Shown here: one piece after another, positions 9,196-59,571 of the stretch | How positions within the stretch are numbered: position 1 is the stretch's first letter | How the letters are laid out: each line of letters starts with the position of its first letter | Source: Patescibacteria group bacterium | GTDB taxonomy: Bacteria > Patescibacteriota > Patescibacteriia > XYB2-FULL-38-15 | DNA: 64,000 bases | NCBI GenBank assembly: GCA_041737355.1 | Contig: JBGSRW010000006.1 | Span: 3,246 to 67,245 of the forward strand | Direction of reading: 5' to 3' | Position numbers and translations under genes: made by a program | Notes under the pieces: model-generated | Told to the model about the DNA's origin: nothing | The model's database searches: none | Seen by the model: the letters and a program-made list of their open reading frames with translations, nothing else

Positions 9196-10053
9196 CTATT
9201 TTTTGGAAAGTTTTTTTACCAAACTGTTCAATTCCTCGTCGCCGTAAAAATGGATCACTATCTGCCCGCCCGGGCCTCTTTTTTTAATTTCCACTTTTGT
9301 GCCCAGAACGCTCCGCAGAGTTTCTTCCTTGGCCGAGACAGCCGGGTTGGGAGTTGAGGCTTTGATCCCCCTGGCCCGCTTCACCGCCCCTTCGGCTTCC
9401 CTGGAAGTCATTTCGTTTTTTAAAATCTTGCTGAAATGTTTCAATTGTTCTTTTTCACTGTCGAGCCCAAGCAAACTTCTTGCGTGGCTTTCGGTCAATT
9501 TTCCGCTCCGCAGGGCTTTTTGTATCTCTTCGGGAAGCCCCAGAAGACGGAGCGTATTGGCTACAGCCGGACGGCTCTTCCCGACGCGCCGGGAAACTTC
9601 TTCCTGGGTTAAATTAAATTCGTCCATGAGTTGTTTGAAAGCCCTTGCTTCCTCAACCGGATTCAAATCTTTACGCTGTATATTTTCGATTAAGGCCAAT
9701 TCCAATTTTTCCTGATCGCGTACCGTCCGCAAAATCGCCGGAACGGTTTTCATATTGAGCATTTTGGCCGCCCGGAATCTCCGCTCACCGGCAATCAATT
9801 CGTAATTACCGCCGTCGATCTTCGAAACAACAAGCGGCTGAAGAATACCGTGTTCTTTTATGGAATTAATCAAATCCTCGAGATCCTGGTAATCAAAATT
9901 TTCCCTCGGCTGTTTCGGATTCGGCTTGATGCTCACCACGGGAATTTCCGCCAAGCGAACACCCGCCGGCATTTCAGTTTCGGCGGAAAGAGCTTGGATT
10001 ATTTTTTTAGGAGGAATCAAGGAATTCAATCCCCTGCCCAGACCGTAAGGCAT
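9196..10053 (-). CDS. parB: chromosome partitioning protein ParB/Spo0J
   Basis: ParB box GERRFRAAKMLN and an N-terminal GLGRGL motif. Confidence 0.9.
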   Translation of the reverse strand: MPYGLGRGLNSLIPPKKIIQALSAETEMPAGVRLAEIPVVSIKPNPKQPRENFDYQDLEDLINSIKEHGILQPLVVSKIDGGNYELIAGERRFRAAKMLNMKTVPAILRTVRDQEKLELALIENIQRKDLNPVEEARAFKQLMDEFNLTQEEVSRRVGKSRPAVANTLRLLGLPEEIQKALRSGKLTESHARSLLGLDSEKEQLKHFSKILKNEMTSREAEGAVKRARGIKASTPNPAVSAKEETLRSVLGTKVEIKKRGPGGQIVIHFYGDEELNSLVKKLSKK

Positions 10054-10071
10054 AATGATAAAATAAAATTT

Positions 10072-10836
10072 CTAAATTTTGTAATCAATAATTTCCCGGG
10101 CTAAACGCTCGTAGGCGTGAGCTCCTTTGCTTTTCGCGTCATACTGCAAAATCGAAAGACCGTGCGAAGGCGCTTCGGCCAGACGGATGTTTCTCGGAAT
10201 AACCGAACGAAAAATTTTATTCGGGAAATATTTATAAAGTTCATTCAGAATCGAATCGGAAAGGCCGACACGGCTGTCGTACATTGTAATAGCCGCGCCG
10301 AGAATTTTTAACTCCGGACGAAGGTTGTCCTGGACCAATTTAATTGTTTCCAAAAGCTGGCCCAATCCTTCAAGAGCGTAATACTCCGCCTGAACCGGAA
10401 TGAAAACTTGGTCTGCCGCCACCAGACTGTTGATTGTTAAAAGCCCCAAAGACGGCGGACAATCGATAAGAACATAATCAAAATCATTTCTTACTTCAAG
10501 CAGGGCGTCATAAAGACGATACTCCCGGCGGTCGACTCCGACCAGTTCGACATTGGCTCCGGCCAAAGAAACGGTTGCCGGAGCGACGCGGTAACCTTGA
10601 ATCGCCGTATTTACAATAACATCGCGGAAAGAAGACGTTCCGGCCAGAGTTTCATAAACCCCTTTAGGCAGTGAACGGTGATCAATTCCTAAACCCGACG
10701 TAGCATTGGCCTGGGGATCCATATCAACAAGCATGACGAATTTCCCGAGGCGGGCCAAATAAGCTCCGAGGTTAACGGCAGTCGTTGTTTTACCGACCCC
10801 TCCCTTTTGGTTGACAATAGCAATAATTTGCGCCAT
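10072..10836 (-). CDS. parA: chromosome partitioning ATPase ParA/Soj
   Basis: Deviant Walker A motif IVNQKGGVGKTTTAVNLGA. Confidence 0.9.
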   Translation of the reverse strand: MAQIIAIVNQKGGVGKTTTAVNLGAYLARLGKFVMLVDMDPQANATSGLGIDHRSLPKGVYETLAGTSSFRDVIVNTAIQGYRVAPATVSLAGANVELVGVDRREYRLYDALLEVRNDFDYVLIDCPPSLGLLTINSLVAADQVFIPVQAEYYALEGLGQLLETIKLVQDNLRPELKILGAAITMYDSRVGLSDSILNELYKYFPNKIFRSVIPRNIRLAEAPSHGLSILQYDAKSKGAHAYERLAREIIDYKI

Positions 10837-10865
10837 AATAAATTATCTGCGCTTTTAGTTTTATT

Positions 10866-10894
10866 ATTATACCTCAATATTGCTTTTTTGGCAA
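10866..10894 (-). promoter_or_regulatory. sigma70-like promoter for parA-parB (TTGCCA-N17-TATAAT on the minus strand)
   Basis: Read directly: RC of 10866-10894 is TTGCCA AAAAAGCAATATTGAGG TATAAT. Confidence 0.5.
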
Positions 10895-10921
10895 GATTGT
10901 TCTAAAATAGGAGTAAATTAC

Positions 10922-11008
10922 GCCGATGTGGCGGAACTGGCATACGCGTGCGACTCAAAATCGCATTCCCTTACGGGATTGTGGGTTCAACTCCCACCAT
11001 CGGCACCA
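10922..11008 (+). tRNA. tRNA-Leu (anticodon CAA) with a long variable arm
   Basis: Acceptor GCCGATG/CATCGGC, anticodon loop cTCAAaa, T arm GGTTCAACTCC, encoded ACCA. Confidence 0.8.
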
Positions 11009-17396: not shown

Positions 17397-19745
17397 CTAT
17401 TTTTTATTCAAAGCCGCGTTCAAAACTTGGCCAACGTCGTCGGCAAAAATAAATTTGAGATCCTTGCGAACATTGTTCGGTATTTCCTCCAGATCTTTCT
17501 CGTTGTCCTTCGGCAGAATGATGGTTCTAACCTCGGCCCGGTGGGCGGCCAAAACTTTTTCCTTTACTCCTCCTATCTCAAGCGCTTTGCCGCGAAGAGT
17601 GACCTCTCCGGTCATCCCGACGTCTTTTTTGATTGACCGGCCGGTCAAAATAGAAATAATCGCCGTAGCCATAGCTACTCCGGCAGACGGACCATCTTTC
17701 GGAATAGCTCCCGAGGGAACATGAATATGAATATCGGAATTCTTATAAAATTCCCCTTTTATCCCGAGCGCTTTTGCCCTAGATCTCGCGTAAGAGAACG
17801 CCGCCTGGGCCGACTCCTGCATCACCTTACCAAGCTGACCGGTCAAAATTAAATTTCCCTTGCCCGGCATTTTGGTCGCCTCAATCAAAAGTATCTCTCC
17901 GCCCGCCTGTGTCCAGGCCAAACCAGTAGCTACACCGATCTCGTCTTTTTTCTCGGCCATAGTTGTATGATATCTTGGCTGCCCGAGAAATTCATGAAGA
18001 TCGGCTAAGCCGACTTTATAATGTTTCTTTTCCCCTTCGGCAAAACGTCGGGCTACCTTACGGCAAATGGCGGCTATATTTCTTTCCAGTTCTCTGACGC
18101 CGGCTTCTCTCGTGTATTCCCTCACAACCGTCCTGATCGCCGGTTCCGTAATTATTAATTTTCCTTCATCGTTCAGCCCATTTTCCCTTAACTGTTTTGG
18201 AATTAAAAATTTCTGGGCAATATGAATTTTTTCTTCCTCAACATATCCCGGAAATTCTATAACTTCCATTCTGTCCCGGAGCGGCGGAGGAATGGTATCT
18301 AAAATATTAGCGGTCGTTATGAACATCACGTCGGAAAGATCAAAAGGAACCTCAAGATAATGATCGGAAAAAGCGTAATTCTGTTCCGGGTCAAGCGCCT
18401 CAAGCAAAGCAGATGACGGATCGCCGCGAAAATCAGTCCCGACCTTATCTATTTCGTCGAGCATGAAAACCGGATTTTTTGTGCCTGCCGTGTTAACACC
18501 CTGAATAATTCTTCCCGGGAGAGCTCCGACGTATGTGCGCCGATGCCCGCGGATTTCGGCTTCGTCGCGGATACCTCCAAGTGACATTCTGAAAAATTTT
18601 CTGCCCAATGATTTGGCAATTGATTTTCCGATCGAAGTTTTGCCCGTGCCCGGCGGACCGGCAAAACAGAGAATCGGACCTTTTATTTTTCCGACTAATT
18701 TTTGCACCGCGAGATATTCCAGGACGCGCTCCTTTGCCTTATCCAGTCCGTAGTGATCTTCATCTAAAATATTCTTAGCTTTTTTTATATCAACCTTGCT
18801 TTCCGTCTTTTTCGACCAGGGAAGCATCAAGAGCCAATCAAGATAGGTTCTGATATAGGAAATTTCCGGGGAAAATGACGGCATTTTTTCGAGACGGGCA
18901 AGTTCTTTCAACGCCTGCTCTTTTGCCTCTTTGGGCATCCCGGCTTTTTCAATTTTTTCTTTTATTTCTTCTGTCTCGCTCCGTCCGCCGACGACACCCA
19001 GCTCTTTTTCGATTGTTTTCATCTGCTCGCGCAGGAACATCTCTTTTTCCATTTTGCCGAGTTCTTTGCCGGTTTCCGCCTGAATCTTCTGCGCCATCCG
19101 CAAAATATTAAGTTGCCGGCCTATTGCTACGGCTAATTTTTCCAGCTTGTCCTCTATATTTTCTGATTCCAGAATCGCCTGTTTCTCCTCAACTTTAAAA
19201 TCCAAATTAATGGCGATCAGGTCGGCCATTTCCCACGGATCGTTAACGCTTAGAATAACAAAGAAAACATCGAAGGGAACGTTCGCCCCCATTGTGACGC
19301 ATTCTTTGAACTGATTGACCAAACTTTTGGTCCAAGCCTCGATTCTCTCCGTTTTTTTGGAAACCGGTTCCGACATTGGTTCAACTTTCACTTTTAAAAA
19401 CGGCTCGGAGGAAACAATTTCGGAAATTTTTGCCCGTACCATTCCTTCGACGACAACCCTTACCGATCCGTCAGGCTGTTTGGTTGTTTCCCTGATTTTT
19501 GCGACGGTGCCAATAGAGTAAATGTCATCCCGTCCGACCTCGGTTAAAATTTCTTTTTTCTGCGCGACGCAAACCGCCAACTGATCGTGTTGCATGGCGA
19601 AATTAAGCGCCTGAAGCGTTTTTTCTCTTTTGATAACAAGTGTCAGCAAAACACGCGGAAAAACAACCACGTCAACCAACGGGACGAGGGCTAATTCTTT
19701 CTTAATTTTTCCGTCAAGATTTCCTAAAAATTTTTCTGCCTCCAT
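17397..19745 (-). CDS. lon: ATP-dependent Lon protease
   Basis: N-terminal Lon domain, Walker A GPPGTGKTS, and the catalytic Ser region DGPSAGVAMATAI. Confidence 0.92.
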   Translation of the reverse strand: MEAEKFLGNLDGKIKKELALVPLVDVVVFPRVLLTLVIKREKTLQALNFAMQHDQLAVCVAQKKEILTEVGRDDIYSIGTVAKIRETTKQPDGSVRVVVEGMVRAKISEIVSSEPFLKVKVEPMSEPVSKKTERIEAWTKSLVNQFKECVTMGANVPFDVFFVILSVNDPWEMADLIAINLDFKVEEKQAILESENIEDKLEKLAVAIGRQLNILRMAQKIQAETGKELGKMEKEMFLREQMKTIEKELGVVGGRSETEEIKEKIEKAGMPKEAKEQALKELARLEKMPSFSPEISYIRTYLDWLLMLPWSKKTESKVDIKKAKNILDEDHYGLDKAKERVLEYLAVQKLVGKIKGPILCFAGPPGTGKTSIGKSIAKSLGRKFFRMSLGGIRDEAEIRGHRRTYVGALPGRIIQGVNTAGTKNPVFMLDEIDKVGTDFRGDPSSALLEALDPEQNYAFSDHYLEVPFDLSDVMFITTANILDTIPPPLRDRMEVIEFPGYVEEEKIHIAQKFLIPKQLRENGLNDEGKLIITEPAIRTVVREYTREAGVRELERNIAAICRKVARRFAEGEKKHYKVGLADLHEFLGQPRYHTTMAEKKDEIGVATGLAWTQAGGEILLIEATKMPGKGNLILTGQLGKVMQESAQAAFSYARSRAKALGIKGEFYKNSDIHIHVPSGAIPKDGPSAGVAMATAIISILTGRSIKKDVGMTGEVTLRGKALEIGGVKEKVLAAHRAEVRTIILPKDNEKDLEEIPNNVRKDLKFIFADDVGQVLNAALNKK

Positions 19746-19783
19746 ATTATAAAAAATATTCTTTAATATTTAATACGAAATTT

Positions 19784-20080
19784 TTATTTAAAAGGTAACG
19801 GAACCTGTTCCCCCTGAAGCTTTTTCGCCGCCCGCCGGCCGTCCACTGTCAATTTTATTTCCCTAATAAACCACTTTTTCGGCGTTCGCATGCCGTAGCC
19901 GGTCAAAAATCCTTTGTCAATCAGGCGCTCCAGAGATTTAGTAACAATATTAACCTGGTCTTCTTTTTTTGGTTTCCATTTCTGCCGGTCGTAAAATTTC
20001 AATAATCGGCCGCGGCTGAATTTATCTTTTTCCCCGTAGCCGGCAAGCAAAATATGCTTCTGAAGTTGGGACAATTTCAT
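19784..20080 (-). CDS. small hypothetical basic protein, possibly a winged-helix DNA-binding protein
   Basis: 98 aa; the HILLAGYG...LERLIDKGFL pattern resembles a winged helix. Confidence 0.4.
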   Translation of the reverse strand: MKLSQLQKHILLAGYGEKDKFSRGRLLKFYDRQKWKPKKEDQVNIVTKSLERLIDKGFLTGYGMRTPKKWFIREIKLTVDGRRAAKKLQGEQVPLPFK

Positions 20081-20167
20081 AGCTTCATTGTACCAAAAAT
20101 AAGGCTTGGTGTAAACCCCGTTAAAAGTGTGTTTTCAAGGACAAAATTACTCTATTTCGGTATCAAA

Positions 20168-20196
20168 AAACCCCGCCATTTCTGGCGGGGTATTTC
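20168..20196. terminator. rho-independent terminator downstream of the 156-aa gene
   Basis: Hairpin ccccgcca-tttc-tggcgggg followed by a T-rich tail on the minus strand. Confidence 0.7.
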
Positions 20197-25792: not shown

Positions 25793-25842
25793 ATAATTGT
25801 ATAATTATAGATTATTTCTCGGATAAAATCAAGATAAAAAAG

Positions 25843-25868
25843 ACCGACTGGCTTGGCCAATCGGCGTG
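25843..25868 (-). terminator. terminator at the left edge of the GC-rich island
   Basis: Hairpin ccgactggc/gccaatcgg followed by a T-run on the minus strand. Confidence 0.5.
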
Positions 25869-25879
25869 TGTCTCCCCTC

Positions 25880-26074
25880 CTAATGTACTGCCTTCTTCTT
25901 ACCTTGCCGCTCAGCCCGGGCCCTGCGGATGGTGTCAATTGCCACCCAGCCCAGAAAACAGAGCGGAACGACGGTAGCGACCGCAACACCAGGCGTCTCG
26001 GAGAGCGCCAGACCGATTGTGGCGGCGACTCCGCCAAGAAAGAACAAGCTGATCAGAATGGCCAAGACCTTCAT
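25880..26074 (-). CDS. small 2-TM membrane protein with a basic C-terminal tail (GC-rich island)
   Basis: 64 aa, two hydrophobic helices, and an AAGAGAGGG SD. Confidence 0.5.
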   Translation of the reverse strand: MKVLAILISLFFLGGVAATIGLALSETPGVAVATVVPLCFLGWVAIDTIRRARAERQGKKKAVH

Positions 26075-26085
26075 TCTGCCCTCTC

Positions 26086-26385
26086 TTACTCCGCAGCTTC
26101 CGCGCGGTCATTTTCCGCCTTGATCGCTGCCAGTTCTTGTTTAAATTCATCGAGCCAACGCTTGGCCTTGAAGCTCGCCTTCACGAGCAAAATCAGCCAC
26201 GCACCAACAAAAGCGATTGGAAGGGTGATGACCAAAAATAACCACCAGCCCATTCCCCCGACGATGAAATCCCAACCGGCGATCCCAACGCACGCCCAGA
26301 TAAGCGCGGCCAGAATAAGCGCGAGCCACGGCGGGAAAAGCATGCCAATGTTCAGCTCGAGATCCTCTTTCTCGTTATCCATCAT
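26086..26385 (-). CDS. small 2-TM membrane protein with an amphipathic charged C-terminus (GC-rich island)
   Basis: Start chosen at ATGATGG behind GGAGGGG (the ORF track extends to 26451). Confidence 0.5.
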   Translation of the reverse strand: MMDNEKEDLELNIGMLFPPWLALILAALIWACVGIAGWDFIVGGMGWWLFLVITLPIAFVGAWLILLVKASFKAKRWLDEFKQELAAIKAENDRAEAAE

Positions 26386-26436
26386 CCCCTCCTTCTGTCT
26401 AAACCTTACCAAAAAATTACAAAAAGTCAACGTCTC

Positions 26437-26465
26437 TTGACGAAAAGGCATAAAAGTAATAATCT
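26437..26465 (+). promoter_or_regulatory. sigma70-like promoter TTGACG-N17-TAATCT for the 399-aa gene, overlapping a short inverted repeat
   Basis: Read directly from the sequence. Inverted repeat: GTCAACGTCTCTTGAC. Confidence 0.5.
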
Positions 26466-26534
26466 AAAAAATACTGTATCTGAAGATAGCTACTCGGGAT
26501 TTGGCAGGTATGGGGGCAAAAAGGAGGGAGTTCT

Positions 26535-27734
26535 TTGAAAAAGCAGATCGTTACGGCTTATGGTAAAACTTCTCTTGATGTAAGGCAGCTTCCCGGGGCG
26601 AACATCTTCGTCTCGCTGGAAAAAGCCATTTTCCCGACGGAAAAGAAAAAGCCCGGAGAAAAACAGCAAAGGGCGGAAATCCCGGCGGGAGCCATTCTCC
26701 TGCCCCATTGGAGCGGTTCCGGTTTCAACGCCCAGCGAGGTTACGTTGTCTACGCAAACGGCCTGTACGAGGCCCTGCGGGCGACAACGCACATCTTCTT
26801 CGGCTACGGAACTCGCGGCAACAAAGGAGAACTCCAGACGCTCGAAACGATGTCGAGACAACTAATCGACATCGTTTCCGTTCTGACTGCTGGCAAGGAA
26901 GCCGGGAGCAACCGGCTAACGGCGGTCCAGACCGAACTTGCGGTTATGGCCGAAGAAATGGCCGCGGTCCTGAACCAGACAAAACGCGAGGCCAGGGACA
27001 AAATCGACGCCTCTAAGGCGCTCGAAGTTTCCCATCCTTCCGGAAAGATGGTTCAAAATCTTCCGGCCAACGCGGTACGTCTTGCGGCCGCCCAACGGCG
27101 CATCGAACGGCGCCAAGACGAGGTGCGGAGAATCGCCGCCCGGCTCGTTTCTTGGGAACAGGTTCTGGCCTCAGAAATCGGCCGGACGTGGGATGCCCTG
27201 AATTGGTTTCGCAAGATGATCGACTCCGAAACGAAGCGCCTCTCGGGCCGATGGACGGACAGGGAGAGGGATGTTTTCCTCAACCGCGCCGGCTGGGCCA
27301 AGGCGCATCTTCTCCCGAGCATCGATGCCGAACCTTTCGTCAAAACCGCGCGCCTCATCCGGCGCGATCTTGGCCAGGCCATGTCTGCCGCTGGCGAGCA
27401 GGAGAAGGATAAGGTGGCCGTGGCGCTGAACCGCATCCTCGCCTCGCTCCGCTTCAAGGACGCTCAGCGAGCCTTTGAAGAAAAAATCCTTCTGCCTTTT
27501 TCCGTCCGACAGGAACTCGGTATTTTGACGCAAAACGACATGAGGCATTTTCGGGGCTGCACCGAAAACTTCCGGGAACGCCTGACCGTTTTGTCGGACC
27601 AGGGTTTCGCGAGTCCGCGCAAAGAGGAAATCATCATCCGCCTGAAACTCGCCGTGATCGAAATTGACCGGCTTGGCGTTGACGGTGCCGAGATCGTAAA
27701 AGACGCGCTGAAACGCGCTTCTCATCTGCTTTAG
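26535..27734 (+). CDS. hypothetical 399-aa GC-rich orphan protein
   Basis: TTG start 6 nt after AAGGAGGGAG; about 58% GC; terminator downstream. No motif recognised. Confidence 0.6.
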   Translation: MKKQIVTAYGKTSLDVRQLPGANIFVSLEKAIFPTEKKKPGEKQQRAEIPAGAILLPHWSGSGFNAQRGYVVYANGLYEALRATTHIFFGYGTRGNKGELQTLETMSRQLIDIVSVLTAGKEAGSNRLTAVQTELAVMAEEMAAVLNQTKREARDKIDASKALEVSHPSGKMVQNLPANAVRLAAAQRRIERRQDEVRRIAARLVSWEQVLASEIGRTWDALNWFRKMIDSETKRLSGRWTDRERDVFLNRAGWAKAHLLPSIDAEPFVKTARLIRRDLGQAMSAAGEQEKDKVAVALNRILASLRFKDAQRAFEEKILLPFSVRQELGILTQNDMRHFRGCTENFRERLTVLSDQGFASPRKEEIIIRLKLAVIEIDRLGVDGAEIVKDALKRASHLL

Positions 27735-27744
27735 CCAAAAATAC

Positions 27745-27830
27745 GCAGCACCCTAAAAAGTGCTGTTTTTTTATAAAAAAAGACCCAACTATGCTTGGTT
27801 GGGTCGAGAAACGTTAACACCTTACCCGCT
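27745..27830. terminator. pair of convergent terminators (cagcac...gtgctg-T7 on the + strand; gacccaacc...ggttgggtc-T7 on the minus strand)
   Basis: Two hairpins, each with a T-run in its own orientation. Confidence 0.7.
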
Positions 27831-27834
27831 CTTT

Positions 27835-28827
27835 CTAGAGCGGTGTCCTCACTCCTCCGAAAGGATCGTCTTCCCAGAGGAGATAATACAGCAGAGCTGT
27901 CCTCATCCACATGCCATTCCGTTCCTGACGCCAGATTTTGATGCGAGGGTCACGGTCGCAGGCCGGCTCAAGCTCTCCCCGCCTCGGCAGAGGATGCATG
28001 ACAATCGAGTGCGGCCTGAGAATCTTAAGATGTCGCTCCTGAAAAAAGAAGGGGGTAGCCCCTTTCTCTTTGTCAAAATCATCCTGGACGCGAGTCATAT
28101 AGACCGCGTCAGATACCGCCACGGCTGCCTCAAGATCTTCCGTTTCCTCAAACAGGATATTGTGCTTGCCGAGGAAATCCTTGATGTCTCCCTCCATACG
28201 ATAGGCTGGGGGAGAAACAAAGATAAGACGAACACCGGGGTAGTGCTTCATGAAGTAAGCGAGAGACCGGACTGTCCGGCCACGCTTCAGGTCCCCGGCC
28301 ATGGCAATAGTCTTGCCTTCAATCCCGCCCAACTCACGAAACTCACGATGCAATGTGTAAATGTCAAGCAGAGCTTGTGTCGGGTGCTGATCCTGGCCTG
28401 AACCGCCATTCACAATATGAGCCGCATGCCATGATTGGCGCACCCTCTCCCGGTCGAAGTACTCAGCTGCTTCCTTGGCAAGACCAGCATGAGGCGAACG
28501 CATAATGATGACGTCCGCATAAGACGCAAAAGTCGCCAGAGAATCAAGAGGCGTCTCGCCCTTAACTTCCGACGAAGTATTCGCGTCACGAATCTCAACA
28601 CAGTCCATCCCCAAATTCTGACAGGCAGACATAAACGAAACAAATGTCCGCGTCGAAACTTGGGTGAAGTACAGCGCTGCCCGCCTGTTTGGGAAAAGCT
28701 TCTTCAGTCGCAAAGCGCCGTCAGTTGTCTGAAATGCCTCCCTGATCTTCGTGGTCAGATTGCAAAGGTAGTCGAGTATTTCGCGGTCAAATTGCTGAGA
28801 TTCAAGAACATGGTAGAGACGCTTCAT
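27835..28827 (-). CDS. pyrB: aspartate carbamoyltransferase catalytic-chain-like transcarbamylase
   Basis: STRTFVSF (carbamoyl-phosphate loop, variant of STRTR), HPTQ, GDLKRGRTVRSL, TRVQ and HPLPR motifs. Start at MKRLYH behind GGAGGA. Confidence 0.7.
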   Translation of the reverse strand: MKRLYHVLESQQFDREILDYLCNLTTKIREAFQTTDGALRLKKLFPNRRAALYFTQVSTRTFVSFMSACQNLGMDCVEIRDANTSSEVKGETPLDSLATFASYADVIIMRSPHAGLAKEAAEYFDRERVRQSWHAAHIVNGGSGQDQHPTQALLDIYTLHREFRELGGIEGKTIAMAGDLKRGRTVRSLAYFMKHYPGVRLIFVSPPAYRMEGDIKDFLGKHNILFEETEDLEAAVAVSDAVYMTRVQDDFDKEKGATPFFFQERHLKILRPHSIVMHPLPRRGELEPACDRDPRIKIWRQERNGMWMRTALLYYLLWEDDPFGGVRTPL

Positions 28828-28867
28828 CGCCCGTCCTCCTTTCCTCCCCTTGCTCGGGTGCAAAAAA

Positions 28868-28900
28868 ACGGCGGAGGATTCCTCCACCGCCGCTTCGTGT
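28868..28900 (-). terminator. terminator after recO at the right edge of the island
   Basis: Minus-strand hairpin cggcggtggagg/cctccgccg followed by ttttttt. Confidence 0.55.
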
Positions 28901-28922
28901 CAACGTTCTAAAAAGAAGAATA

Positions 28923-48730: not shown

Positions 48731-49315
48731 TTACTTCTTCTTGTGCAAGACAAGCCAGGCGATGAGACCGGAATGGAACAACCCCTCGATTGGGTGCAGC
48801 CTCACCACGCGCAGAGGGTTGTGGCAATCCCAGTAGCCGTTTCTCCCAAAGACCGGGACGACTGATTGTTCGGAGCGGCGCCATTCCGTGGGAAGGACGA
48901 GCGAACAGCGGGTCTGGATATCGGGATTTTTGGAGATGAACTGCATGCCCCGACGCGGGCCGCACCTTCGATATCCCTCATTATTCAGCCGGCGAACAAT
49001 CTCGTCTCCATGGAGACCGAGAGCCAAATTTGCAAAACTATACTGATGAACTTCCCAGTCGTCTTCGTCCGGCGCGATTGGCTCCAGAGGAAAACGCGAT
49101 TCGTTGAAATCGGCGTCGATTTCGTCCTGCCGGCAAGCGTCAAAAAGTCTTTGCCAGGCTGAAGGAACCATCTCGCTAATGAGCGCACGCCGAAGTCCGT
49201 CGGCCAGATCCTGCGGCCGATGAAGCCAGTGCTGAACCCGCTCAGACGAAAGATCGCGTGGCAAAGCGCGGAGCACTGCCTGCTCAAACTCCTCCCCTCG
49301 AGATTCTTCACTCAT
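48731..49315 (-). CDS. hypothetical 194-aa GC-rich orphan protein
   Basis: About 55% GC; own promoter TTGACA-N16-TAAAAT at 49338-49365; an AGGGAG SD. Contains a weak Rx4H motif (RVVRLH). Confidence 0.55.
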   Translation of the reverse strand: MSEESRGEEFEQAVLRALPRDLSSERVQHWLHRPQDLADGLRRALISEMVPSAWQRLFDACRQDEIDADFNESRFPLEPIAPDEDDWEVHQYSFANLALGLHGDEIVRRLNNEGYRRCGPRRGMQFISKNPDIQTRCSLVLPTEWRRSEQSVVPVFGRNGYWDCHNPLRVVRLHPIEGLFHSGLIAWLVLHKKK

Positions 49316-58578: not shown

Positions 58579-59571
58579 CTAACCCGAGAGCCGGACCGAC
58601 GGAACGAGCCGGCGGTACCTTGCCCGAAGCTTACCGTTCAGTGCGGCATTCCGGGGAAGGCCTCGGACCAAGAGTTCGATTCTCCCGCTTACAACGTGGC
58701 TTCTTACCTGGAGCACTTCGTTGGAGCCCTCTCTTTCGTTGTAGGCAGTCCGGAGACAGACCGGTTCGTCCTGATCGAGGATGTCGCAGGAGATCTCCTT
58801 CATGACTACCCAGGCAAGCAGATACTCCTCAAGCGAGAGCACCTCCCAACCAGCGGGCGCCTGCCGCTCGAATTCGCTGAAGTTCTTACCATGCCGCGGC
58901 GCGCTTCCGCCGATCTCCGCCCAGAACCAGTAGCCTTCGCTTGTGGGAGAGAAGGCAATCCAGCTCCTGTCTCCCTCCCGCAGGGTCGAATGGCCTCCGA
59001 GGCCGATGGCCTCCATCAGTCGGCCGTAGGAAACCTTGACCTCTGGCGGCCGGTAGATCAGCTGTTTGTTTTCCCCGCAGCCGGTCTCGAATTCCTCGGC
59101 CGTAATCGCCGCCCTGGGTACCTCGATACCGTTGAAGTCGTAGAGGCGGAAGAGATTCTCCGCGGTCTGCCGCCAGTTTTCCACGGGGTCATCAGTTGCC
59201 GCAGAGGGCGGAACCGACGGACATATCCGCCTGGCCACCGTAGCCGTTTTGGGACGAACATCTTCCGACTCGCCCACGAACTGTGCCGCCGCAAGCTGGA
59301 TATCGAGCTCCGCTACACGCGTGCGGAGAAGCTCGAGTTCCTCGCGCTCTTCCGGCTTGAGCTCCGGACAGACGAGCCTCGTCGATTCGGAATCGGAGGT
59401 GTTGCCCTCCAGAGCCGCTTCGATTGCCAACTTGAAACCGCGAAGCGCGATCTCCGCCGTCATTTCCTTACGTTCAACCAAGTCGCAAAGACGCTGCCAC
59501 CTGCCGGCCATCCGCTCCATAAGAGCGAGATCGGCAAGAAGCTTGTCGATTCTCTTCGGGTCTCTTTCCAT
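58579..59571 (-). CDS. hypothetical 330-aa GC-rich orphan protein
   Basis: GGAGGAGGAAGG SD; a TTGACA promoter at about 59640-59674; about 58% GC. Confidence 0.55.
   Translation of the reverse strand: MERDPKRIDKLLADLALMERMAGRWQRLCDLVERKEMTAEIALRGFKLAIEAALEGNTSDSESTRLVCPELKPEEREELELLRTRVAELDIQLAAAQFVGESEDVRPKTATVARRICPSVPPSAATDDPVENWRQTAENLFRLYDFNGIEVPRAAITAEEFETGCGENKQLIYRPPEVKVSYGRLMEAIGLGGHSTLREGDRSWIAFSPTSEGYWFWAEIGGSAPRHGKNFSEFERQAPAGWEVLSLEEYLLAWVVMKEISCDILDQDEPVCLRTAYNEREGSNEVLQVRSHVVSGRIELLVRGLPRNAALNGKLRARYRRLVPSVRLSG

Follow-up and report, generated by a model that had tools for sequence, protein, structure and literature searches.

A 64,000-nucleotide stretch of DNA from a Patescibacteria group bacterium (contig JBGSRW010000006.1, positions 3,246 to 67,245; in the following "the window", by which the whole 64 kb are meant) carries on its minus strand, at 27835..28827, a gene for a 330-amino-acid protein resembling the catalytic chain of aspartate carbamoyltransferase (ATCase or PyrB; EC 2.1.3.2). 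We consider it likely that this gene encodes a genuine and catalytically competent ATCase, the activity of which we infer, and that it belongs to a divergent, widely distributed subfamily with Gln at position 50 and a residue other than Arg at position 234. The enzyme would carbamoylate the amino group of L-aspartate with carbamoyl phosphate as the donor, N-carbamoyl-L-aspartate and phosphate being the products; for ATCases this is the committed first step toward pyrimidines. Its most likely role in the cell is pyrimidine synthesis, the other steps and the source of carbamoyl phosphate (carbamate kinase or carbamoyl-phosphate synthase) then being encoded outside the window. The arguments come from the integrity of the gene, the fold, the retention of the ligand residues, the clade membership, synteny, base composition, selection, and the pyr-operon context of other members of the clade.

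Family and Fold Assignment

The longest form of the minus-strand open reading frame (ORF) ending at 27835 starts with a GTG at 28887 and comprises 350 amino acids. Starting from the ATG at 28827 the product has 330 amino acids, and this ATG is preceded, at a distance of 6 nt, by the Shine-Dalgarno-like AGGAGGA (28834..28840, minus strand; read directly from the sequence). A full-length entry identical to the 330-amino-acid protein exists in the protein database (from an NCBI contig). The translation contains FTQVSTRTFVSFM, HPTQ, GDLKRGRTV, TRVQDDFD, and HPLPR, and thus all the PyrB motifs that had been listed in a preliminary description of this DNA. In Pfam both halves of the protein are recognized (OTCace_N with E 6e-28, OTCace with E 2e-22), which means that the two-domain fold is present. 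The four top models of NCBIfam are all aspartate carbamoyltransferase models, the best being TIGR00670 with 218.7 bits.

When the sequence is compared with those of solved structures, Arabidopsis PYRB comes first (E 2e-55), then the ATCase domain of human CAD, and then archaeal, fungal CAD-type, Moritella, and E. coli ATCases, with ornithine carbamoyltransferases (OTCases) far lower. A model obtained with AlphaFold2 (AF2) from an input of 25 relatives has a predicted local distance difference test score (pLDDT) of 89 and a predicted template modeling score (pTM) of 0.89. Used as query in Foldseek against the PDB, it matched only ATCases among the top 50, the best match being Arabidopsis ATCase with N-(phosphonacetyl)-L-aspartate (PALA), for which the template modeling (TM) score was 0.85 when normalized to the query and 0.90 when normalized to the target. 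With the PyrB proteins of Arabidopsis, human CAD, and E. coli (the comparison class being ATC II-type catalytic chains) the window protein thus has in common the two-domain fold, SxRT, HPTQ, HPLP, all contact residues, an identity of 35–40% to the Arabidopsis and human enzymes, and relatives in pyr operons. It differs from them in Gln50, Phe56, Met60, Arg165, Asp232, and Phe234, in an insertion of about 10 residues ahead of the NGGSG segment, in the lack of a nearby pyrI or pyrC, and in a score just under the TIGR00670 cut-off.

Other transcarbamylases were considered and rejected. The NCBIfam models for OTCase, putrescine carbamoyltransferase (PTCase), and YgeW gave 18–90 bits, with cut-offs of 281–545. 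The preliminary description had taken the protein to be of the ATCase rather than the OTCase type, and rightly so: the motifs agree, HPLPR is found, TIGR00670 is the best model, and the OTCase model TIGR00658 reaches 62.5 as compared with 280.85, there being HPLP instead of HCLP and no DxxxSMG. For the knotted transcarbamylases of the YgeW type we took a proline-rich loop, an extended 120s loop, and a length of about 390–400 amino acids as criteria; the window protein has 330 amino acids, and TIGR03316 matches its N-terminal domain only, with 31.9 bits as compared with 500. PTCase also has Gln in third place in the Fx(Q)xSTRT motif. It belongs to the OTCase branch, however, with HCLP, another 240s loop, and an extended C-terminus, and its model TIGR04384 scores 53.8 (cut-off 500), the motifs disagreeing. 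The second ATCases of the Burkholderia type (PRK08192 with about 340 and PRK11891 with about 430 amino acids) are ATCase paralogues of unproven, possibly catabolic role, which likens them to the window protein. They keep FxExSTR and RxQxER, however, and their models score only 162.2 and 172.3 bits with the window protein, the cut-offs being 512 and 560. Finally, ureidoglycine transcarbamylase (UGTCase) from Rubrobacter xylanophilus, once annotated as pseudo-ATCase, is the single enzyme of the ATCase branch known to have switched its substrate; its association with an energy metabolism linked to carbamate kinase may be counted as a further likeness. UGTCase has H(T/S)LP together with Ser258 and Lys261, whereas the window protein has HPLP (in HPLPR) together with Arg229 and Gln231, and the UGTCase motifs are not present in it.

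Ligand Residues and the Variant Loop

In a MAFFT alignment with E. coli PyrB (a reference checked to be identical to PDB 1ekx) all 16 E. coli residues that contact carbamoyl phosphate and aspartate are identical in the window protein. The carbamoyl-phosphate site is complete with S52, T53, R54, T55, R105, H134, Q137, and P266-L267 (of HPLP), including the part contributed by the neighboring chain, S80 and K84; P268 and R269 are also retained. The aspartate site is present with R167, R229, and Q231, which are conserved in 156, 155, and 153, respectively, of the 156 ATCase-branch sequences aligned, over which the contact positions are near-invariant in general.

Differences from E. coli are found at other positions: in the loop Arg56 is replaced by Phe and Glu60 by Met, and outside the loop Tyr165 is replaced by Arg and Lys232 by Asp. 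The preliminary description had pointed out the two loop changes and had named a different substrate as one possibility. The changes do not speak for it, since neither position 56 nor position 60 belongs to the ligand residues, Phe56 is found clade-wide, and the residues for aspartate are intact. The loop varies even among solved ATCases, being STRTSSSFA in human CAD and STRTRLSFE in E. coli. Nearly all of the 120 closest relatives in the database, which are 52–100% identical to the window protein, have Phe56 and share F(T/V)QPSTRTF(L)SF(x), GDLKRGRT, R(I/V)QDE(H/Y)D, and HPLPR, and the same motif split is seen among representatives clustered at 50%, the canonical ATCases having FYEPSTRTRLSFE, GDLK(N/H/Y)GRT, and RIQKERF. 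Positions 56 and 60 pair up: Arg together with Glu occurs in 45 of the 156 sequences, and the two clade members in which Arg56 is restored have Glu60 restored as well. As judged from these alignments, the STRTF(x)SF(x) loop is a trait of the whole clade and not a private change of the window protein, which makes the finding of a variant loop a fairly ordinary one. In the clade the Arg56-Glu60 pair is replaced by Phe56 and a variable residue.

The Switch at Positions 50 and 234

More telling than the loop are two changes that the preliminary description did not mention, Glu50 to Gln and Arg234 to Phe. In the alignment of 156 sequences 71 have Glu50 together with Arg234, and all 79 sequences with Gln50 have a residue other than Arg at position 234, namely Tyr (31), His (25), Trp (14), Leu (6), Phe (1), or others (2). 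To judge by these sequences, the two positions show a strict two-state covariation, which is the real hallmark of the clade. In the E. coli enzyme Glu50, Arg167, and Arg234 form a salt bridge that stabilizes domain closure and thereby the closed active state (PMC6981877), and in the E50A mutant the activity is about 15-fold lower and cooperativity is abolished (PMC6056424). With Gln50 and Phe234 in place of Glu50 and Arg234 the inter-domain salt bridge cannot be formed; it is replaced by Gln50 in combination with an aromatic residue, His, or an aliphatic residue at position 234, which is Phe here.

There are also Gln50 lineages outside the main clade (e.g., P0203 and P0244) that have retained Arg56 and Glu60. 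The switch at positions 50 and 234 may thus have had more than one origin.

Phylogeny and Distribution of the Clade

A neighbor-joining (NJ) tree of 161 sequences, rooted with OTCases and calculated with 200 bootstrap replicates, places 67 of the 79 Gln50 sequences in one clade nested in the ATCase branch. Within it an inner clade from the candidate phyla radiation (CPR), composed of the window protein and P0002, P0004, P0006, P0008, and P0010, is recovered in 199 of 200 replicates, and in 191 of 200 when P0013 is added. The smallest clade that joins the window protein with P0066 from Fibrobacteres and the Desulfobacterota-type P0116 has 46 tips, 44 of them with Gln50, and contains all members with an informative gene context, including those of the two pyr arrangements (L094 and L091) described below. 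The preliminary description had named clustering within bona fide PyrB clades, together with a complete pyr pathway elsewhere in the genome, as what would speak against an orphan or a different substrate. It is the clustering half of this that was found, the clade including the gene of a pyrR-pyrB-pyrC operon.

Scanning of 185,579 species genomes yielded 80 loci of the clade. They are from Patescibacteria, Fibrobacteria, Oligoflexales/Bdellovibrionota, Desulfobacterales, Elusimicrobia, Ignavibacteria, Alpha- and Gammaproteobacteria, and Auribacterota, and, among the archaea, from one member of the Micrarchaeia (DPANN). The latter, a Candidatus Micrarchaeia metagenome-assembled genome (MAG), has the clade gene at 10001-10954 of locus L054, between genes for a B12-binding radical SAM protein and an AdoMet decarboxylase-like protein. 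This may reflect a transfer between domains, into another symbiont with a reduced genome, or an error in binning.

Gene Neighborhoods of Clade Members

When the ORFs of 94 loci were clustered, no universal neighbor was found; the commonest clusters are limited to 11 loci or fewer and stem from synteny at the level of lineages. Some of the contexts are nevertheless clear. In L094 the clade gene is the second gene of a pyrR - clade gene - pyrC operon with an overlap of 4 nt between pyrR and the clade gene and a distance of 3 nt from the clade gene to pyrC. Both partners score above the model cut-offs (pyrR by NF003549 with 203.6 bits, cut-off 138; pyrC by TIGR00857 with 406 bits, cut-off 279), and the clade protein, which is 49% identical to the window protein, has FTQPSTRTFLSF, RIQDEHD, and HPLPR. 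In L091 the clade gene is directly followed by a gene for dihydroorotase (DHOase; TIGR00857, 296 bits), and in the CPR-like genome of L013 a DHOase gene is found 7 kb from it. Together with the contexts given below, this is the pattern expected of a housekeeping PyrB that uses carbamoyl phosphate.

A second recurrent partner is carbamate kinase, which is encoded in the fetched flanks of 12 loci from three phyla. Its gene adjoins the clade gene in L037, L048 (in the order clade gene, carbamate kinase), and L081, overlaps it by 8 nt in an Elusimicrobiota MAG (L056; same order), and in Ignavibacteria the order is carbamate kinase, [OTCase], clade gene. Downstream genes in Ignavibacteria that were considered as pyrD, pyrE, and pyrF turned out to be fabD and fabG-type genes and genes for DUF3109 and TerC proteins. 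In five Desulfobacterota loci (L009, L033, L039, L045, and L046) the clade gene recurs in a cluster with genes for OTCase, carbamate kinase, and argG, which also comprises an ArgA-like acetyltransferase, an arginase-family protein, a sigma-54 activator, and two conserved proteins (about 386–466 and 446 amino acids) with no family match. The cluster looks like an arginine and carbamoyl-phosphate module.

Immediately upstream of the clade gene purM is found in 11 loci from Oligoflexales/Bdellovibrionota. A special Oligoflexales pathway was considered and dismissed, the partners there being purM, a Nit-like CN-hydrolase, and an RNase Z-like protein, i.e., housekeeping genes. Other tightly linked neighbors (genes for EF-G, an EngB-type GTPase, endonuclease III, and response regulators) are of the housekeeping kind and uninformative. 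On the CPR contig of L097 (11613-16059) genes for tmk, a nucleoside deoxyribosyltransferase, thyX, and dut lie within about 5 kb of the clade gene; this pyrimidine-salvage and dTMP cluster is on the strand opposite to the clade gene.

In the window itself the gene stands alone, as the preliminary description had already noted of pyr and carbamoyl-phosphate genes. DHOase, carbamate kinase, OTCase, purM, and argG were not found in the 64 kb by tblastn with queries from related loci, no ORF there is long enough for carB, and no PyrI domain was detected among the window ORFs of about 150–160 amino acids that were scanned. Without pyrI the enzyme would probably act as an unregulated trimer.

Age of Acquisition and the GC-Rich Island

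The gene order in the window (ribosomal-protein operon, secY, adk, map, ruvX, recO, ATCase gene, asnS, aspS) is shared by four related loci, namely L001 (Candidatus Falkowbacteria MAG GCA_016214745.1), L015 (a Patescibacteria MAG), and the JGI contigs L095 and L096. The flanking proteins of the Falkowbacteria MAG are 53–90% identical to those of the window, which agrees with the CPR setting assumed in the preliminary description; for L001 and L015 together the range is 41–90%. The ATCase proteins of the four genomes are 67–78% identical to the window protein. Between the orthologues the ratio of nonsynonymous to synonymous substitutions (dN/dS) is 0.07–0.08, with dS from 1.3 to saturation (infinity). 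Four diverged relatives have the gene in this position between recO and asnS, and it has been under strong purifying selection, with dS near or past saturation; its acquisition is thus old and predates the split of these genomes. The preliminary description had considered a recent acquisition, which these data do not support. An ancestor of the Falkowbacteria-like lineage would thus have gained the gene horizontally, with or next to GC-rich cargo, between recO and asnS, and purifying selection would have retained it after the transfer.

A foreign composition of the region had also been proposed, and is indeed seen: from 26 to 29 kb the G+C content is 0.51–0.57 as compared with about 0.40–0.47 in the flanks, and the GC-rich patch between asnS and recO, with the ATCase gene and variable cargo, extends over 25793..28922. 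The ATCase gene is GC-rich in all four syntenic genomes (G+C at third codon positions, GC3, of 0.51–0.73 vs. 0.29–0.52 in the flanks). It should be noted, however, that simple amelioration should have erased the GC3 excess of the ATCase gene, whereas the orthologues in the window, L001, L015, and L095 have kept a high GC3 despite saturated synonymous sites. This might be due to selection on codons, to repeated replacement, or to recombination. In three CPR or CPR-like loci (L097, L007, and L013) the clade gene has a near-native composition.

What lies between the ATCase gene and asnS differs from genome to genome. In L001 and L095 the ATCase gene is alone between recO and asnS, whereas in L015 it is accompanied by a 512-amino-acid RNase J-like gene. 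In the window two ORFs are present between the ATCase gene and asnS. ORF399 (26535..27734, plus strand; 399 amino acids, GC 0.574, GC3 0.67) is convergent with the ATCase gene, is equipped with a terminator-like hairpin of its own (27745-27766), and has no match in Pfam or NCBIfam. Only four homologues were found among 5.8 billion proteins, all of 399–402 amino acids and with 39–59% identity, the one with 59% being encoded beside asnS in the related locus L099. ORF399 appears to be a real, very rare gene. The other is a small GC-rich ORF of 121 amino acids (26086..26451, minus strand; GC 0.511, GC3 0.62), apparently for a membrane protein to judge from the hydrophobic stretches in its translation, with only sub-threshold family matches in Pfam and NCBIfam and no match in the related loci. 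In L099 both the ORF399 homologue and an RNase J-like gene are next to asnS; the GC-rich RNase J/beta-CASP-like genes beside asnS in L015 (9076-10614) and L099 (1878-3002) are 65% identical.

Two further GC-rich ORFs in the window, at 58579-59571 (minus strand, GC 0.605) and 48731-49315 (minus strand, GC 0.564), have no Pfam match. No mutual similarity was found among ORF399, the 121-amino-acid ORF, and the other GC-rich orphan ORFs of the window, which holds several small foreign-looking patches of orphan genes. A phage origin of the island was considered and rejected: the ATCase matches only distant (≤35%) ordinary ATCase genes, several of the matched records are bacterial contigs, and ORF399 has no match. 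In L095 a second ATCase-like ORF (19240-20169, plus strand; 309 amino acids) of native GC lies beside an M20 peptidase gene. It has kept FFQPSTRT and KGE and has lost HPTQ (which reads EHALAA), GDLKxGRT, and HPLP, and is possibly a pseudo-enzyme; no counterpart of it exists in the window.

Just past the stop codon of the ATCase gene a consensus scan finds an intrinsic-terminator-like hairpin (GACCCAAC...GTTGGGTC followed by T7; 27782..27805, minus strand). A second terminator-like hairpin with a T-run is located in the interval between the recO stop and the ATCase start (28867..28891, minus strand; same scan). It is strong, with 11 pairs, lies directly after recO and, with respect to the start codon of the ATCase gene, about 40 nt upstream, and probably ends recO transcription. 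The ATCase gene may therefore need its own promoter or depend on read-through.

Function of the Window Protein and Alternatives

Several points weigh against a functional ATCase of pyrimidine synthesis. The score with TIGR00670 is below the equivalog cut-off of 236.95; clade members with the same motifs span this cut-off with 217–258 bits, a canonical ATCase having 318. The published ATCase signatures are FxExSTR and RxQxER (review PMC4581275; FxExSTR per Shi et al., 2015), and the window protein matches neither, having FTQVSTRT without Glu at the third position and RVQDDF in the 240s loop, where the clade consensus is RIQDE(H/Y/W). It is through the changes at positions 50 and 234 that the clade fails both signatures, although the substrate-contacting residues are all kept. 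Phe234, like the Leu found at this position in the nearest relatives, can make no hydrogen bond to Gln50, so that the activity may be low, or closure may take place in another way. The bootstrap value of the whole clade in the NJ tree is weak (24 of 200). A search of the literature retrieved no paper on a characterized member of the clade or on pyrimidine synthesis in Falkowbacteria, and no enzyme assay of any member. The window lacks any pyr, carAB, or arcC gene, and about 93% of Patescibacteria genomes are without de novo nucleotide synthesis, the genes for which are phylogenetically scattered in this group (bioRxiv 10.64898/2026.06.21.733656). Because most Patescibacteria lack the pathway, an orphan role, the catabolic one included, is possible though improbable.

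In such an orphan role the chemistry would be the same and the direction opposite: carbamoyl-aspartate and phosphate would be converted to aspartate and carbamoyl phosphate, from which carbamate kinase would form ATP; or, as a variant, the enzyme would drain carbamoyl phosphate from a pathway of the arginine-deiminase type. Taken together we regard these two as unlikely. They would suit a cell without de novo pyrimidine synthesis, and the absence of pyr genes from the window, the loss of the closure salt bridge that confers high affinity for aspartate, and the carbamate kinase genes in the flanks of 12 loci, adjacent or overlapping in four of them, are what one would then expect; a catabolic ATCase is listed as possible but unproven in the review on transcarbamylases (PMC4581275). 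However, clade members occur in pyrR-pyrB-pyrC and pyrB-pyrC arrangements, carbamate kinase is encoded neither in the window nor in the four syntenic loci, and there is no common pathway known to supply carbamoyl-aspartate to such a cell. The vicinity of carbamate kinase to OTCase and ATCase fits equally well a kinase that supplies carbamoyl phosphate for biosynthesis. Such an arrangement is known from Pyrococcus.

That the second substrate is one other than aspartate, as in YgeW-like transcarbamylases of unknown substrate or as in UGTCase on the ATCase branch, is less probable still. UGTCase is a precedent for a substrate switch on this branch, both signatures and the TIGR00670 cut-off are failed, and acidic residues are unusually abundant in the 240s loop (RVQDDFD, with RIQDEHD in the clade); yet R167, R229, Q231, and K84, which hold the two carboxylates of aspartate, are invariant, the UGTCase markers H(T/S)LP, S258, and K261 are not present, the YgeW, PTCase, and OTCase models score far below their cut-offs, and members of the clade take the place of pyrB in pyr operons. 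Least credible of all, and almost certainly wrong, is a functionless, decaying remnant of horizontal transfer. The foreign composition, the solitary position, and the orphan ORFs nearby would fit it, but the reading frame is intact and equipped with ribosome-binding site and terminator, all catalytic residues are retained, and the low dN/dS at synonymous sites near or past saturation contradicts decay. An ATCase catalytic chain that serves pyrimidine synthesis thus remains the likely reading.

Significance

There is an outside chance that the Gln50/non-Arg234 clade is a mechanistically distinct class of ATCases that closes without the Glu50-Arg167-Arg234 bridge, and that, if the pyr pathway is absent, the enzyme serves another purpose in the CPR lineage. 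Were this so and the pathway absent, phosphorolysis of carbamoyl-aspartate feeding carbamate kinase for ATP synthesis could be that purpose, the enzyme then being the long-postulated catabolic ATCase; alternatively, the enzyme could act as a sink for carbamoyl phosphate. For CPR biology the gene is one more horizontally acquired gene of nucleotide metabolism retained in a reduced genome, a point that becomes of interest only in case the remaining pyr steps are missing from the complete genome.

For annotation the consequence is more general. A large and phylogenetically broad clade of ATCases, a subfamily that is under-recognized and that operon context supports as PyrB, escapes FxExSTR, RxQxER, and the TIGR00670 cut-off or is captured by them only marginally. 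And the covariation of Glu50/Arg234 on the one hand and Gln50/aromatic-or-His on the other is a natural experiment on the textbook mechanism of domain closure in ATCase.

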